Shown piece by piece: positions 22,423-28,621 of a DNA stretch of 53,536 nucleotides. Numbering within the stretch: position 1 is the stretch's first letter; every line of letters begins with the position of its first letter. The position numbers were made by a program, and so were the translations under genes. Source of the DNA: Planctomycetota bacterium (GTDB taxonomy: Bacteria; Planctomycetota; SZUA-567; H5-PLA8); assembly GCA_045863855.1 (NCBI GenBank), contig BTVV01000036.1, positions 1 to 53,536 on the forward strand, written 5' to 3'. The notes under the pieces are model-generated. The model worked only from the letters and a program-made list of their open reading frames with translations, was not told the origin of the DNA and did no database searches.

Positions 22423-25400
22423 CTATTTCTTCACGAGCACCTTTTCGTCGTTCAACGCATCCACCTTGCGGCAGAAAGCCGCGAAGGCGGCATACTCTTC
22501 TTTCTTGATGCGGTACGTATCGAGGCGGAAATCGATCTTCAGGGTCAGGCGCTGCCCTTCCTGGCGCACCTCGCGGACGAAGCGGCCGAACGACTCTTTG
22601 AGTTCCACGCTTTCGGGCAAAGCCACCACTTTGTAGCCCTCGTCTAACTGGTACACCGTTTCGACCTGCCGGCTGCGGGCGAACCAAAGCATCAGATCGT
22701 GGGTGCGTTCGGCGCCGCTGACGTACAGGCGCGAAAGATCCATGCTTTCCGGGGCGGAAGGCAGGCTGTAACGGTCGCCGCTGGGCGTGGCCAGACGTGG
22801 AACGCGCAACTCGGTCTCGAACCACATCGGCCCCTGTTCGCCGGGCTGCGCTTGCGTGAGGCGCGATAGTTCGGCTCCAGGGAACTGCTGAGCGATCTGT
22901 TCCTTGATGAAGCGCTCGAACTGCCCCGGGGTGCCCGCGCGCTGGCGCCAGTACGGCGCATACTCGCCGGTCGCGACGGTACGCACGAACACTTGCGCGG
23001 CGCCTTGCGCATTCAGCGTGGCGGTCACGCGCGTTTCGTGGCGGTTGTCCGCGGCGGCGGTGCGCGGAATCTGGACAAACTGGCCGCCTTCGGGGCCGAC
23101 CACCAGGACCTGCGCGCCTTGATCCATGGCCGGAACTTCGCCCAGCTGGTGGTAGTCGGTCGTGCCGTCGATCCAGTACTCCTTCCCATCCACATCGGGA
23201 ATGTAGGCGATGCAGTGGTTGAATAGATTGGGCGCGGGCAGCGAGTGCTCGTCCACGGCGCCGGCGTCCACGGTGCGAATCAGCACGACGCGCGCGTCGA
23301 TCCCGGCGGCCTTGCACATTGTGGCGATCAGAAGCGAGGTATCCTTACAGTCGCCGTACAGCGCGCGGAAGGTTTCGGTGCTGCGGTGCGGCTTATAGCC
23401 GTTGCGCCCGAACTCGATGCCCAAGTAGCGAATCTTTTCGATCGCCCAGTCGTGAATCGCGCGCAGCTTTTCGGTCGGCGTCTCCAAGTTCGCGGTCAGC
23501 TCTTTGACTTGCGCCTCGATCGCTTCGTCAACGACCATCTGTTCCTTGGCCAGATTCCAATACCACGTGCCGACTTCCTGCCAAGTCCGCATGGTGGTGG
23601 TTTGGACGAACGGAAGCTGGTCCAGAGCCGGAGGCATGCGGCGCTCTTGAACGATGCCTGGCAGATTTTCGGCCTGCCAGCGCAGCACCTCGCGTTCGGG
23701 GTCGTTGGACTCGACGCGTTCCGGCGCGGCCCCGTGCCGGAAGGTCTGGTGCCGAAACTCGCGGGACTTGGGCAGGCTGAGGACATACTGGCTCTTCTGC
23801 ACCGGCGAATCGTCGCCCAGGTAATACGCGTCGGCGAAATAATCGCCATAGATGTTCTCGCCGCTGTCGCGCACAACGTATTGCAGATCTATCAGGGCGC
23901 CGACTTCGATATCGCGAAAGACGATTTCCTTAAGGTGGTATTCGTCGTAGATGCGCGTCTGAACGCCCATCGCGGCGCTGACCGAACGGTCGCCGACATC
24001 GGCCCGCGCCAGTTCCCGCCCGTCGGGCATGATCACCGCCGCGCGCAGCACATCCACGACCTGCCGCTGCGGGTCGTAGAACACGGTGTGGCGCTGGAGG
24101 TCGCCCTTGCCGCCCGCACGCAACAGCTTGGAGATCTGGTGGACCATCCGGCTGGAGGTTCCATTGGGATTGACGTGAACGACCTCCTGCTTGAGCAGGT
24201 GCACGGCATTATCGCGCGGGTAATCGTCCGCCGCGGGCACGGGTAGATCCTTAAGCGCAATCTCGTACGGCGCGAAGAAGCCGCGGTCGAGTCCGCGCCC
24301 GGTATTGATCTCCGCCAGTGCGTCTTTAATACCCGGCGCGTTGGGCTTGATGCGCAGCGCCTCCTGCCACAGCGCCGCGGCCTCGTCCGGCTTCCCGCCA
24401 CGCAGGCGCAATCCGGCCAACGCCGAAAGCAATTCCGTATTCTCCGGCGCGATCCGGCGTGCCTGTTCGAGGTACTGCGCGGCCTTATCCGGTTGCCCCG
24501 CACGGCGCCACGCTTCCGCAATGTCCAGGTGCTCTTCGATGGCGAACGGCAGCAGCATTAAACTCCGCTCGCGGAAAGCCGCGGCCTCGGCCTCGCGGTC
24601 GAGTTCCATCAGTTCCTCGGCCCAAAGCTGCCGCAACCCGGGGTCGCCGCCCGCGAATTCGAGCCCTTGCTCGAAGGCCTTGCGCCGCGCGGCATGACCC
24701 GCCGCGGTGGAACCCAGAATTTGCCAGCCCTCGGGATCGAAGGGCGACTGCTTGACGTACTGAGCGGCCCAGCCGTTCGCTTCGGGCTGCAAATCGCGCG
24801 CGCGCAATATTTCCGCCAGCACCTTGGCCGCTCCGCCTGCGCGTTCGGTGCCAAACTTGGAAAGCACCTCGCGTGCGTGCGGTTCGGCTTCCAATTCCAG
24901 ACCCGCGGCGTGGTGCAGCAGCGCCAAGCGTTCCTGCGCCGCGGGCGCTTCGGGATGTTCCTTCAAGCACGCTTCGGCAGATTGGCGCGCTTGGTTCGGA
25001 TCGCCCGGATAGCCGGCCAGGAGCAATTGGAATACCGCGCAGCGGGGAGCCAGCTTCAGGGCCTTTGCGTAGGCCTGCGCGGGATGGTGGTCCTCCTTGT
25101 TTCCAAAACGATGCAAATACGCATGGTAGCCGAACCAAGCCTGCAGCCAGGCGGAATCGGGCTCGGCCTTCAAGGCCGTCTCCAGGCGCGGAAGCAAGCC
25201 CAGCTCGGGATTCTCCGGTTCCAAGAGCGGGGTGGCGCGGCCGGCCGCGGTGGCTTTGTACCCCTCCAGCGCCTCGGCCGAAGGATCCACCGTCACGCCG
25301 GGCACCGGACCGCCTTCGGGCTTGGAGAGCCGCACGCTGAAGGACCACTCGGTGTCCTCCACCGCACCTGCTTTGATCAATATCTGGTTCCAGCCTGCGT

Positions 25401-26346
25401 GCAGGTAAACCGGCACGGCGCTTTTTTCGGGCGCGTAATCGTGGCGCGTCGGCACTTCGACGACCTGGCGCTGATTGACCCACACCTTGGCCGCCCCGCC
25501 GCAGCCCAGCCACAGCACCGCCCACTGCGCCTGCTCCAGCTTGAGCTGCGTGGCCGCGTAGGCGAGCGAGTGCGTGTTGGGCTCGAAGAGCGTGTCGAGT
25601 TCGACGATCCCGTCGAGTGGTTCGACGGGCGGATGGATCCAGGCCACGTTGCGGTTGCGCCCCCGCATGGGCCGTTCGAATTGAACTTCGTCTTCCGGTG
25701 CGTACTTATCCGGCATGCCCGCGCCATCGCGGTTATCGAACGGACCGCTCAGCGCCCAGCGCTTGATGAACTGGAGCGGCGCGTAGGCCTCGGCCGCTTC
25801 GGTAAACCGCCCGCGCGCCTGCAACCACGCCGCGCGCGCGTAGCGCGCATGCCCGCGCAAGTAAGGCCGCACCTTGGCATCGCCTTCCACGACCGCCGCG
25901 GCTTCCAGGAAGGCCGCATCGTCCGGCGCTTCTTGAAGCACTTCGAGCAACACATGCAGGTACAACTCAGCCCAAGGCTCCTGCCGACCGCTGGAAAAGG
26001 CTCGAGCCAGGTGCTCGACCGATTCCCGTGAGCGTCCGTTCAGGCGTTCCAGCAGACCCAATCCGAACCGCGCGGCCGCATCGTCCGGCGTCTGAGCCAG
26101 TCGCGCACGAAACGTGGCCTCGGACTCCGCGTTCTTGCCTTCCAGCAATAAGCCGAACGCTAGCAGCGTTCCCGCATCCGGCGTGGCGCCGCCCAGCGCG
26201 TGGAACCCCTGCGGCGCCGCGGCCTCGCCCGCGCCAAGTCCCGCCGCCAGCCCAAGCGCCAAAGCGACCAGAAGTCCACGAACACAGCCAAAGGACCGGC
26301 GGGAAGCAAGCGAGAGCATCGACGCGGCACTCCGTGGGCCAAGCAT
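22423..26346 (-). CDS. Large exported protein: TPR, beta-sandwich, DUF3857 and transglutaminase-like domains
   Basis: Signal peptide; TPRs; catalytic triad motifs GDCKD, FNHCI, WIDGT. Start 26346 or 26319. Confidence 0.85.
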   Translation of the reverse strand: MLGPRSAASMLSLASRRSFGCVRGLLVALALGLAAGLGAGEAAAPQGFHALGGATPDAGTLLAFGLLLEGKNAESEATFRARLAQTPDDAAARFGLGLLERLNGRSRESVEHLARAFSSGRQEPWAELYLHVLLEVLQEAPDDAAFLEAAAVVEGDAKVRPYLRGHARYARAAWLQARGRFTEAAEAYAPLQFIKRWALSGPFDNRDGAGMPDKYAPEDEVQFERPMRGRNRNVAWIHPPVEPLDGIVELDTLFEPNTHSLAYAATQLKLEQAQWAVLWLGCGGAAKVWVNQRQVVEVPTRHDYAPEKSAVPVYLHAGWNQILIKAGAVEDTEWSFSVRLSKPEGGPVPGVTVDPSAEALEGYKATAAGRATPLLEPENPELGLLPRLETALKAEPDSAWLQAWFGYHAYLHRFGNKEDHHPAQAYAKALKLAPRCAVFQLLLAGYPGDPNQARQSAEACLKEHPEAPAAQERLALLHHAAGLELEAEPHAREVLSKFGTERAGGAAKVLAEILRARDLQPEANGWAAQYVKQSPFDPEGWQILGSTAAGHAARRKAFEQGLEFAGGDPGLRQLWAEELMELDREAEAAAFRERSLMLLPFAIEEHLDIAEAWRRAGQPDKAAQYLEQARRIAPENTELLSALAGLRLRGGKPDEAAALWQEALRIKPNAPGIKDALAEINTGRGLDRGFFAPYEIALKDLPVPAADDYPRDNAVHLLKQEVVHVNPNGTSSRMVHQISKLLRAGGKGDLQRHTVFYDPQRQVVDVLRAAVIMPDGRELARADVGDRSVSAAMGVQTRIYDEYHLKEIVFRDIEVGALIDLQYVVRDSGENIYGDYFADAYYLGDDSPVQKSQYVLSLPKSREFRHQTFRHGAAPERVESNDPEREVLRWQAENLPGIVQERRMPPALDQLPFVQTTTMRTWQEVGTWYWNLAKEQMVVDEAIEAQVKELTANLETPTEKLRAIHDWAIEKIRYLGIEFGRNGYKPHRSTETFRALYGDCKDTSLLIATMCKAAGIDARVVLIRTVDAGAVDEHSLPAPNLFNHCIAYIPDVDGKEYWIDGTTDYHQLGEVPAMDQGAQVLVVGPEGGQFVQIPRTAAADNRHETRVTATLNAQGAAQVFVRTVATGEYAPYWRQRAGTPGQFERFIKEQIAQQFPGAELSRLTQAQPGEQGPMWFETELRVPRLATPSGDRYSLPSAPESMDLSRLYVSGAERTHDLMLWFARSRQVETVYQLDEGYKVVALPESVELKESFGRFVREVRQEGQRLTLKIDFRLDTYRIKKEEYAAFAAFCRKVDALNDEKVLVKK

Positions 26347-26463
26347 AGGGGATCCTACGCCGAAGGGCTGCCTTGACCAAATGACGAATAAACCGCGGAA
26401 GCCCACAAACAAAAGCGCCCCCTGCACGAGGGGGCGCCATTCGAAACAGGTACGGCTCGAGCG

Positions 26464-27060
26464 CTAGTTGCCCGCGCCGGGGGAAGCTCCGGAGGCCGCT
26501 TCGCGCGCTTCCATGGCCTTCTGCCGCGCAACCTGCTGCTCCGCCACACGCCGGTCGATGAAGTCCTTGAGCAACTTGCGGTCGGAGACCGAAGCGTTGA
26601 TGAACTTCACGCCCAGTTCGGGCTCGTTGGCCTCAACCGAGTCGGAAATACGCACGACTTGGCATTCGCCCACCAAGTTGGCCAATTCGGGAAGCTCGCG
26701 GAAGCGCATACGGATCGAGAACTGGCGCAAGGGCAAGGCATTGCGGGACAAGCGGATGTTGGTGAGCAGCGAACCGCCGACGCCGATGTTGCGCGCCACG
26801 GCCTCGCCACGATCAAAGACTTCGCCGTTATCGAGAATCACCTCAAGGGTGCACGGTGCGTTCACTTCGGTGCGTCCGTACTCGCGCTTGAACGGACGGC
26901 GGATGGTGGTGAAGTCGTACCCCATCTTCTCGGCCGTTCGGAAAACCAGATCACGCGTTGCTTCGCTGGCCGAATACTTGGGATCGCGGTTCAGAATCTT
27001 CGTGACCGTCGTCCGTGACAATCCAAGCGCATCGGCGATGGCCTGTTGACTGACCGCCAT
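26464..27060 (-). CDS. LacI-type HTH fused to a PilZ domain (candidate c-di-GMP-responsive regulator)
   Basis: QQAIADALGLSRTTVTKILN...SEATRDLVFRTAEKMGY; PilZ REYGR (RxxxR), NIGVGG, VVR, LGVKF; GGAGGGGG RBS before ATG. Confidence 0.82.
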   Translation of the reverse strand: MAVSQQAIADALGLSRTTVTKILNRDPKYSASEATRDLVFRTAEKMGYDFTTIRRPFKREYGRTEVNAPCTLEVILDNGEVFDRGEAVARNIGVGGSLLTNIRLSRNALPLRQFSIRMRFRELPELANLVGECQVVRISDSVEANEPELGVKFINASVSDRKLLKDFIDRRVAEQQVARQKAMEAREAASGASPGAGN

Positions 27061-27125
27061 GGTCGCTTCCCCCTCAACCCCACCCGTTTGCAGGAACCGG
27101 TCATGCACTCGCATAAGGCTGCCGG

Positions 27126-27146
27126 TGTGCATTTTCAGAATGCACA
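27126..27146. promoter_or_regulatory. Palindromic operator candidate
   Basis: TGTGCATT-TTCAG-AATGCACA, perfect 8-bp arms, immediately downstream of the -10. Confidence 0.7.
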
Positions 27147-27147
27147 G

Positions 27148-27175
27148 AGTGTAACCTAAAGCCATACCTTGTCAA
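27148..27175 (-). promoter_or_regulatory. Sigma70-type promoter of the LacI-PilZ gene
   Basis: TTGACA (27175-27170), 16 nt, TACACT (27153-27148) on the minus strand. Confidence 0.7.
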
Positions 27176-27333
27176 TGCGCCAAGTGCTTTCCCACGTGCA
27201 CCAATCTCCCTCAAAGGACTTAAGAATAGAATGACAAAAAATGCACCGTGCAGCTGCCTAAAAACCATACCCGGCAGTATATCGAATGCACTCATTCATT
27301 CGTAAACTTCAATCATGCCTAGCCTTATAACGA

Positions 27334-27365
27334 CACCGCCCGACGGTTAATCCCGTCGGGCGGTG
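27334..27365 (-). terminator. Hairpin, probable terminator of the LysM gene
   Basis: Perfect 13-bp stem CACCGCCCGACGG/CCGTCGGGCGGTG with 6-nt loop; weak U tract. Confidence 0.6.
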
Positions 27366-27418: not shown

Positions 27419-28621
27419 TTAAAGCCCAGGATTCACGGGTGCCGGCTGCACGTTTTCTTGCTTACTGCTCGAAGCCGGTGTGCGAATTCCACTCGTCGTC
27501 GCGGCATTGGATTCCGTTTCCGACGCTTTCCGGAGCACCACCGTCGACTTCTCTACTTTAGGCGTTGTCGGTTCGGTCTGCAACGCGGGCTGCGAGCTTT
27601 GCGTTTCGGTGACGCCTCGCACGCGTAGCTTCTGCCCTACGCGCAACATGCCCGGATCGCTGAGCCGGTCGCGGTTCCATTCGTAAAGATCGCGCCAGCG
27701 CCGGCCGTCATTAAAGAGCTTGCGAGAGATGCGTTCGAGGGTATCGCCGGTCTCGACCACGTACTCCGAGCCCCCTTGCGCTTCGAGCGTAGCGTCCGAG
27801 GCCGGCGCCATGGACACGGGTGCTGCGGCGGCCGGCGCAGCTTGAGCGGGTGCGCTGGCGCTACCGGCGAGTCCTGGAACCGTCAGGCTCATGCCCACCA
27901 GTATCCGCCGGGGGTCGGTAAAGAGCTGTTTGTTGGCTTCGCTGAGCAGCTTAACGCCTTCACGCATCCGGCCGGGATAATGCTTCTGCGCAATGCCGCT
28001 CAAGGTATCTCCGGCTTGAACCACATACTTCCGCTCTCCAGTCGCGGGTACCGGTTCCACCGCCGCTTCTGGCAAGGCGTAGCCTGGAACGGTCATGCGA
28101 GAGGGGTCCACCGCGACCTGGGTGGCCGGAGCAGCTTCCGGCTGCAAAACGGGCGGCCCGGACGGCAACGCAGGCGTGCCGCCGTATGGCGCGGTATTGG
28201 GAATGGCGGTGACGCGCGCTGCGCGCGGGTTCGCCGGCCCCCGACGCGTCTGCTCCCATTGCTGCACGATTCGTTCGGGCGGCTGGCTCACGGGAGGCAC
28301 GGGCGCTGCCGGCGTCGGAGCGACCAAGTACGGCGCGGCTGCCGGCCCGGTGGGCGGAGCCGCTTCCGCCGGCGGGATCTCCGGCGCTTGCGCCTGGTTC
28401 TTATTCTTCTTACCGCCGTCGTAGACGAGGCTGATGACCACAACCATCAGCAAGAACAGCGTCAGCAAACCCCATTTGAACTCGCGAAAGACCTTAGCGG
28501 CGCCACTGGCGGCAGAGGACGTCTTGTTGACCCACGATTGGCCGGCGGCCGGGGATGCGGAAGCCGATGTCGGGTTCTCTTCGTGCACGGAAGAATCCTC
28601 GAGTTCCTGGCGCTCACGCAC
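27419..28621 (-). CDS. Membrane-anchored protein with two LysM domains
   Basis: TM GLLTLFLLMVVVISLV; Pro/Ala linker; YVVQAGDTLSGIA and YVVETGDTLERIS. Confidence 0.88.
   Translation of the reverse strand: MRERQELEDSSVHEENPTSASASPAAGQSWVNKTSSAASGAAKVFREFKWGLLTLFLLMVVVISLVYDGGKKNKNQAQAPEIPPAEAAPPTGPAAAPYLVAPTPAAPVPPVSQPPERIVQQWEQTRRGPANPRAARVTAIPNTAPYGGTPALPSGPPVLQPEAAPATQVAVDPSRMTVPGYALPEAAVEPVPATGERKYVVQAGDTLSGIAQKHYPGRMREGVKLLSEANKQLFTDPRRILVGMSLTVPGLAGSASAPAQAAPAAAAPVSMAPASDATLEAQGGSEYVVETGDTLERISRKLFNDGRRWRDLYEWNRDRLSDPGMLRVGQKLRVRGVTETQSSQPALQTEPTTPKVEKSTVVLRKASETESNAATTSGIRTPASSSKQENVQPAPVNPGL

Follow-up and report, generated by a model that had tools for sequence, protein, structure and literature searches.

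A LacI-type headpiece fused to a PilZ barrel: a candidate transcription factor of Planctomycetota that would respond to c-di-GMP

The gene, its product and its promoter

The window, a stretch of 53,536 nucleotides from a Planctomycetota bacterium, carries on its reverse strand a stop-free open reading frame for a 198-residue, ~20-kDa protein (P0001), in which a LacI-type headpiece is directly fused to a PilZ barrel (Table 1). An earlier note, made from the sequence alone, had described this direct fusion without a sugar-binding domain and had pointed to the motifs REYGR and NIGVGG; the reading frame and both motifs are found in the same positions (residues 59–63 and 91–96), and Pfam, an AlphaFold2 model and fold comparisons agree on the architecture. 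The Pfam search proposed in that note matched PilZ (PF07238) over residues 58–169 with 33.1 bits, above the cut-off of 22.5, and LacI (PF00356) over residues 8–48 with 24.2 bits, just below the cut-off of 27. The structure prediction, which it had also proposed, returned a PilZ fold for the C-terminal domain.

Table 1. Features of the P0001 locus; positions refer to the window.
Feature	Position	Strand	Basis or remark
LacI-headpiece::PilZ gene (P0001)	26464–27060	-	ORF translation, Pfam, homologue search
LacI-type three-helix headpiece, residues 2–53	26902–27057	-	PF00356 and structural matches; recognition helix from Arg16
PilZ beta-barrel, residues 58–169	26554–26889	-	PF07238, Foldseek, structural alignment
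RxxxR motif (Arg59, Arg63; REYGR, residues 59–63)	26872–26886	-	Lys58 before; abuts hinge-equivalent segment
Second PilZ motif NIGVGG, residues 91–96	26773–26790	-	Gly93 where Ser is canonical
RBS-like purine-rich stretch before start codon	27066–27075	-	read from sequence; putative function
Sigma-70-type promoter TTGACA-16 nt-TACACT	27148–27175	-	predicted
Candidate autoregulatory operator across -10 and predicted +1	27120–27153		inverted repeat and two imperfect sites; putative binding
Further TGCAC-containing candidate sites upstream of -35	27189–27298		27189–27201, 27242–27252, 27287–27298
Intrinsic-terminator-like hairpin, T-rich tail	26414–26438	-	predicted

The AlphaFold2 model, built from 51 homologues (mean pLDDT 76.9, pTM 0.54), begins with three helices, which a linker (pLDDT below 50 at residues 60–62) connects to a six-stranded barrel followed by a long C-terminal helix. 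The top 10 Foldseek matches are all PilZ-domain structures or complexes thereof, the best being YcgR, MotI, MapZ, Alg44 and MrkH. In an independent structural search, YcgR matched residues 58–183 of the model (111 residues aligned, rmsd 2.9, Z 11.1), and the headpieces of CelR (Z 7.8, rmsd 1.5), CcpA (Z 7.7) and LacI (Z 7.4) matched residues 2–52, at rmsd values of 1.5–1.8 Å; a sequence search against solved structures returned LacI-like headpieces only (best E 0.0019). The periplasmic-binding-protein-like sugar-binding core is absent from the 198 residues by Pfam, model and structural search, and PilZ stands in its place. The model and the structural search likewise show no N-terminal PilZ-like barrel of the MrkH/YcgR two-barrel type, the N-terminal domain being helical. 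In the alignment with PurR, Phe57 occupies the position of the hinge leucine. P0001 may be viewed as a variant of the one-component c-di-GMP transcription factor that falls outside the strict LacI family.

The start at 27060, rather than the in-frame upstream ATG at 27165, agrees with the N-termini of homologues, and the predicted promoter falls within the longer frame; a similar -35 hexamer is situated ~60–130 nt upstream in most orthologue loci. The candidate operator comprises an 8-bp inverted repeat (27126–27146) over the predicted +1 and imperfect palindromic sites at 27120–27131 and 27141–27153. An RNA contig of a close relative covers 26385–27141 (20 differences in 758 nt), and another contig 26441–27119. 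The RNA evidence consists of contigs, four of 21 being placed, which inform on neither level nor start and leave 27159–27341 uncovered; one contig end, 27141, near the predicted transcript start, is a weak hint. Together with the promoter and the hairpin, the contigs, which cannot prove the start, fit a single-gene transcript.

Upstream of the gene lies one for a two-LysM membrane protein (27419–28621, reverse strand), which is found there in 12 of 20 orthologue loci, and downstream a large TPR-DUF3857-transglutaminase gene (22423–26427, reverse strand), which follows in 8 of 20. Both neighbours were considered as a regulon and set aside, as a terminator-like hairpin stands after the gene and a functional link was not found.

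Conservation of the fusion and of the c-di-GMP motifs

A protein search returned 176 homologues of P0001 at E ≤ 0.001 among 700 candidates, and the 120 matches listed share 54–100% identity with it; across these 120 aligned orthologues, residues 1–63 show a mean identity of 91% versus 63% for the barrel. Twenty orthologue loci were recovered, all from Planctomycetota MAGs except one titled uncultured bacterium. Within the class, 25 of 25 genomes from families f1–f5 carry the orthologue, two of them represented by partial matches; a search of the 37 genomes in f6 and f7 did not reveal it, six of these giving only weak partial matches. The wider family comprises 248 representatives at 50% identity, mostly of 160–180 residues, and in a phylum sample of 401 genomes, 73 match the family profile, 36 of them with a full two-domain match. 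Among 107 selected full-length members of this broad family, 74 match PilZ and 67 match LacI in Pfam (E ≤ 0.001), the best LacI match having an E value of 5.4e-12. The protein atlas labels the nearest clusters "PilZ domain-containing", Planctomycetota, and nothing further. The fusion is strongly conserved across the clade.

The family also has members of other kinds. The host genome (G000) encodes a 141-residue paralogue (G000:C27:7750-8175, L090) with the same-family PilZ barrel and canonical motifs and without the headpiece, which could be a partner or an antagonist of P0001; headpiece-less second matches occur in most gene-bearing genomes. A subfamily with a DQG-type recognition helix (L047 and L186–L190, from G365, G428, G182, G295, G379 and G416) has its genes directly behind apparently one conserved upstream gene, and the short gap suggests that they are probably operon-embedded.

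Galperin and Chou (bioRxiv 814665) give the second PilZ motif, in the passage concerned, as [D/N]hSxxG; P0001 has the N, the hydrophobic residue and the G, and the serine is replaced by glycine. Of the 120 listed orthologues, 119 have Arg59 and all have Arg63, Asn91, Gly96 and Arg137; at position 93, Gly is found in 102 and Ser in 18. In a distant set limited to members of 140–240 residues (127 of 151 representatives), Arg59 is found in 121, Arg63 in 123 and Ser93 in 104 of the 127. RxxxR is present in 104 of the 107 broad-family members, and both PilZ motifs are canonical in 73 of these. Since most of these distant relatives (104 of 127) retain the serine, Gly93 appears to be a derived variant by sequence comparison; in a quick tree of 69 rows, the Gly93 form is a derived clade (support 90) with one reversion to Ser inside. 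The variant second motif flagged in the earlier note is thus real in P0001 (Gly93) and yet not typical of the family, most of which carries D/NxSxxG. Gly93 is a real caveat to c-di-GMP binding by P0001 itself, and the Arg59/Arg63 stretch could be conserved for DNA contact instead.

An Arg or Lys before RxxxR goes with dimeric c-di-GMP, and Lys58 holds this position in P0001. Passages of Cheang et al. (bioRxiv 2020.02.11.943704) state that the residue preceding RxxxR (R/K or L) sets dimeric versus monomeric ligand, that PA2989 binds c-di-GMP despite an altered second motif, and that the motifs are lost in many PilZ proteins. A YcgR S147A variant is mentioned in PMC12713396, the passage giving no affinity for it.

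The host genome has four GGDEF matches, with GGEEF seen in three, five HD_5 matches, four of them with the HD-GYP signature, nine PilZ matches and 11 MshEN matches; no EAL domain was found in a domain search of this 94% complete genome. GGDEF is present in 62 of 62 genomes of the class. Judged from its motifs, c-di-GMP binding by P0001 is plausible. We also note three reading frames of the host genome (G000:C4:32431-34059, C62:6046-7359 and C112:7520-8368) that each match both PilZ and MshEN and so unite two types of c-di-GMP receptor domain, as well as a GGDEF-PilZ fusion with intact motifs (G000:C17:73392-74612) and an HD_5 protein whose C-terminal part matches PilZ (C30:22719-24164).

A candidate operator and its genomic distribution

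TGCAC is the top enriched 5-mer upstream of the orthologues: the 250-nt upstream stretches of 19 orthologue loci contain 66 copies versus 13.8 ± 3.4 in 500 shuffles, and 18 of the 19 have it. The upstream site is absent in three of four intermediate orthologues. In the host genome, for which gene calls were made in this analysis (5174 genes, 84% coding), a second half-site peaks at a 2-bp spacer, with 40 perfect and 123 one-mismatch counts on both strands; spacers of 4–7 bp give only ~4 perfect and ~30 one-mismatch counts. TGCAC-NN-GTGCA ranks first of all 2-bp-spaced 5-mer inverted repeats, with 22 intergenic occurrences versus 1.3 expected and none within genes versus 3.8 expected. As CGCAC ranks second and AGCAC sixth, the core would be GCAC-NN-GTGC, and we consider (T)GCAC-NN-GTGC(A) quite probably the operator of P0001. 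The flanks of the 22 perfect sites are unrelated except in one pair, and the central dinucleotide is mixed among 20 intergenic sites, with no fixed central CG. Divergent intergenic regions contain 2.30 sites per kb, convergent ones 1.38. The 250 nt adjoining the P0001 start contain seven TGCAC sites, one of only two such 7-site clusters in the 6.9 Mb genome; this promoter contains no perfect 12-bp palindrome, only imperfect sites or sites spaced by 1 and 3 bp.

The enrichment of sites near ECF genes described below gave rise to the idea that TGCAC is a sigma-factor -35 element. This idea was rejected: strand counts of 396 and 369 show no bias, no partner occurs at -10 distance, and words associated with TGCAC are found only at +5 to +9, which is the palindromic partner. 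An ECF promoter with a TGCAC motif was not found in a literature search at the level of listings. A dispersed ~95 bp element of the host genome was found in 13 intergenic copies (on C3, C11, C23, C35, C38, C40, C51, C61, C74, C82, C154, C194 and C235). Its core has a direct repeat of TATAGCA, and its inverted ends contain GCAC; it could represent the end of a mobile element or a composite operator, and it probably adds to the 3-bp-spacer peak.

Across the class, the 25 gene-bearing genomes contain 518 palindromes versus 156 for the flipped and 164 for the reversed control, and 20 of them exceed the flipped control, three tie and two fall below; the 37 genomes without the gene contain 51 versus 106 flipped and 30 reversed. 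This contrast of presence and absence is effectively one phylogenetic split, with different base composition on its two sides, and the count of one genome, G005 (121), is inflated by repeats with common flanks. In G005 (L164–L179), repeated elements with common flanks and short tandem repeats harbour the palindrome.

Upstream of 18 distant members, TGCAC is not enriched (3 versus 7.1) and ACATGT is (12 versus 0.8). Of the 11 members with Arg16, nine have ACATGT or CACNNGTG no more than 80 nt from the start, as against none of the seven without Arg16; this motif was picked after inspecting those same 18 loci. In 20 further loci, for which the Arg16 rule was predicted beforehand, a site within 120 nt was found in two of nine versus none of 11, which points weakly in the same direction; of these two sites, one follows the -10 element directly and forms a perfect 16-bp palindrome. 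Arg16-type members from unrelated Planctomycetota families with different neighbours carry a CAC-AT-GTG palindrome at their own promoters, as do both paralogues of one genome, G077. In the five Arg16 genomes counted, CACATGTG is rare (6–38 per genome) and is located at the promoter of the family gene in four. A genome-wide excess of CACATGTG in such distant genomes was considered and dismissed: it is slightly above the reversed control in two of the five and below it in three, and below control in five of five non-Arg16 genomes. The slight or absent excess suggests that a global role does not extend to the whole family; the distant proteins look like local autoregulators, and the regulon looks to have expanded in the clade of the window.

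Among 2778 upstream regions of at least 120 nt in the host genome, 209 contain a perfect-core or one-mismatch palindrome and 49 its flipped control; some 150 promoters have the palindrome in excess of background. A Pfam scan covered 84 of the 130 genes near the strongest sites. It identified PilZ genes, ECF sigma factors and Ser/Thr kinases, two motor operons of type IV pili, PrkA, one regulator of the NtrC type and housekeeping genes, dnaG and nuoA among them. Seven gene families were tested post hoc, four of which were retested with matching for length and GC. A site is present at 17 of 44 ECF genes versus 4.8 expected after matching (12 versus 3.8 for palindromes alone); enrichment is weaker for kinases (12 of 60 versus 6.1) and pilus ATPases (3 of 5 versus 0.6), and absent for FHA (1 of 10), NtrC (3 of 14) and ordinary LacI genes (0 of 8).

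Across genomes, the pilB and pilT loci have 20 and 27 half-sites versus 9.0 in shuffles, and palindromes precede each in three of 20 loci; pilT loci in genomes without the gene have seven half-sites versus 2.8. The pilus link is only suggestive, because the pilB and pilT counts include the host genome and the intergenic background of the clade is raised. A standalone PilZ gene (C43:8842-9237) was rejected as a conserved target, with seven sites in the host genome and only six in 11 other loci. In this clade the regulon is likely global, with ~150 predicted promoters that are rich in ECF genes, and Ser/Thr kinase and pilus motor genes as weaker members. A transcription-factor reading of P0001 would thereby gain a candidate operator and a candidate regulon.

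Proposed mechanism, alternatives and related systems

We give about an even chance to the reading in which P0001 is a dimeric transcription factor that binds the GCAC-NN-GTGC palindrome, represses its own promoter and is switched, as predicted, by c-di-GMP. The recognition helix with Arg16 would quite probably read the palindrome as the operator of P0001. The ligand would fairly likely be bound by Arg59/Arg63 and Asn91/Gly96, and given Lys58 before RxxxR it would probably be the intercalated dimer. The RxxxR loop begins two residues past Phe57, where the LacI hinge ends, and is the lowest-confidence predicted part within the two domains; from these two features, we propose that c-di-GMP would order the loop against the barrel and thereby fix the headpieces at half-site spacing. 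Ligand-promoted DNA binding is slightly favoured over ligand-induced release.

The palindrome may have its regulator in P0001 and the PilZ domain nonetheless no longer bind c-di-GMP in this clade, serving as a module for dimerisation or protein contact, with the arginines touching DNA or a partner. Gly replaces Ser in 102 of the 120 listed orthologues, the headpiece and linker are conserved at 91% versus 63% for the barrel, an HTH-less paralogue with the same barrel, a possible partner, exists in most gene-bearing genomes, and motif loss is common in PilZ proteins according to passages of bioRxiv 2020.02.11.943704. We nevertheless regard loss of binding as unlikely, since Asn91, Gly96, Arg59, Arg63 and Arg137 are invariant or nearly so, the quick tree has a reversion to Ser inside the Gly clade, and the same passages describe PA2989 as binding c-di-GMP with its altered motif. 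It is somewhat less likely still that P0001 senses c-di-GMP and the palindrome is the site of a different conserved regulator of the clade, which would have the gene as just one target. The perfect site is missing from its own promoter and the co-occurrence depends on a single clade split, as this would have it. Against this stand the rare CAC-AT-GTG palindrome at the promoters of Arg16-type members in unrelated families and of both G077 paralogues, the rank of the P0001 promoter among the two densest TGCAC clusters in 6.9 Mb, and the mostly autoregulated LacI-family factors with palindromes of 10–16 bp, as stated in part of PMC2329647.

The excess of TGCAC could also stem from mobile-element ends or dispersed repeats, P0001 being a local autoregulator with few targets; shared flanks at many sites of G005, the GCAC-like ends of the ~95 bp element of the host genome (13 copies found) and the lack of a clear genome-wide site enrichment in distant families speak for it. 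Related flanks in only one pair among the 22 perfect sites, the ECF-gene enrichment that persists after length and GC matching, and the higher density in divergent than in convergent intergenic regions (2.30 versus 1.38 per kb) render this quite improbable. Beyond the dimeric switch proposed above, a broader picture can be put forward only tentatively: P0001 would be a c-di-GMP master regulator of an uncultured Planctomycetota clade, in which PilZ replaced the sugar sensor, the ligand loop replaced the hinge switch, and ~150 GCAC-NN-GTGC sites serve about a third of the ECF genes together with kinases, pilus motors and other PilZ genes.

BldD has an XRE-type HTH and is not known to contain a PilZ domain. 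This global regulator of Streptomyces is an HTH transcription factor under c-di-GMP control, as P0001 would be, and is dimerised by tetrameric c-di-GMP (PMC4151990). MrkH of Klebsiella pneumoniae (PMC5055493, in part; PDB 5ejl, Z 9.6 versus the P0001 model) shares with P0001 the PilZ-containing regulator type and the RxxxR linker, and binds dimeric c-di-GMP and its own promoter. MrkH is a two-barrel YcgR-like protein that contacts DNA through a basic PilZ surface and is a monomer in solution, as described in the same source, whereas P0001 has a single barrel, a separate LacI-type headpiece and a palindromic candidate site. With the LacI/GalR family, especially the global regulator CcpA (passages of PMC3074128 and PMC2329647), P0001 has in common the headpiece, a palindromic candidate operator, probable autoregulation and many degenerate sites; it differs in the missing periplasmic-binding-protein core, Phe57 at the hinge-leucine position and the lack of a fixed central CG. 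The CcpA hinge helix folds on DNA and inserts leucine at the central CpG, with the effector acting via the core domain (PMC3074128, in part), and this feature is missing from some true LacI members (PMC2329647, in part).

Cheang et al. (bioRxiv 2020.02.11.943704) predict a C-terminal HTH for the 97 PilZ proteins of their cluster 15, which is similar in combining PilZ with HTH and in a role in gene expression proposed from sequence alone; the domain order is opposite, and the passages concerned mention no LacI type, operator or Planctomycetota. HTH or LacI fusions are likewise unmentioned in the accessible part of Galperin and Chou (bioRxiv 814665). The earlier note knew of no characterised LacI-HTH and PilZ protein, and no LacI-PilZ or HTH-PilZ fusion was found in the literature searched, which is mostly non-subscription and leaves aside the supplements of PilZ surveys that could list such proteins; the fusion is apparently undescribed.

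The LacI hinge is the best-studied allosteric hinge in gene regulation. If the proposed mechanism is true, P0001 would represent a one-component c-di-GMP switch of minimal size, in which this hinge has received the ligand loop as a graft, and possibly a compact c-di-GMP reporter. The natural Ser/Gly variants allow a direct test of the importance of the motif serine, and the predicted operator makes binding and switching accessible to assays in vitro or in E. coli, for which the host need not be cultured. Such work would offer a first way into the regulatory network of the deep-branching Planctomycetota.
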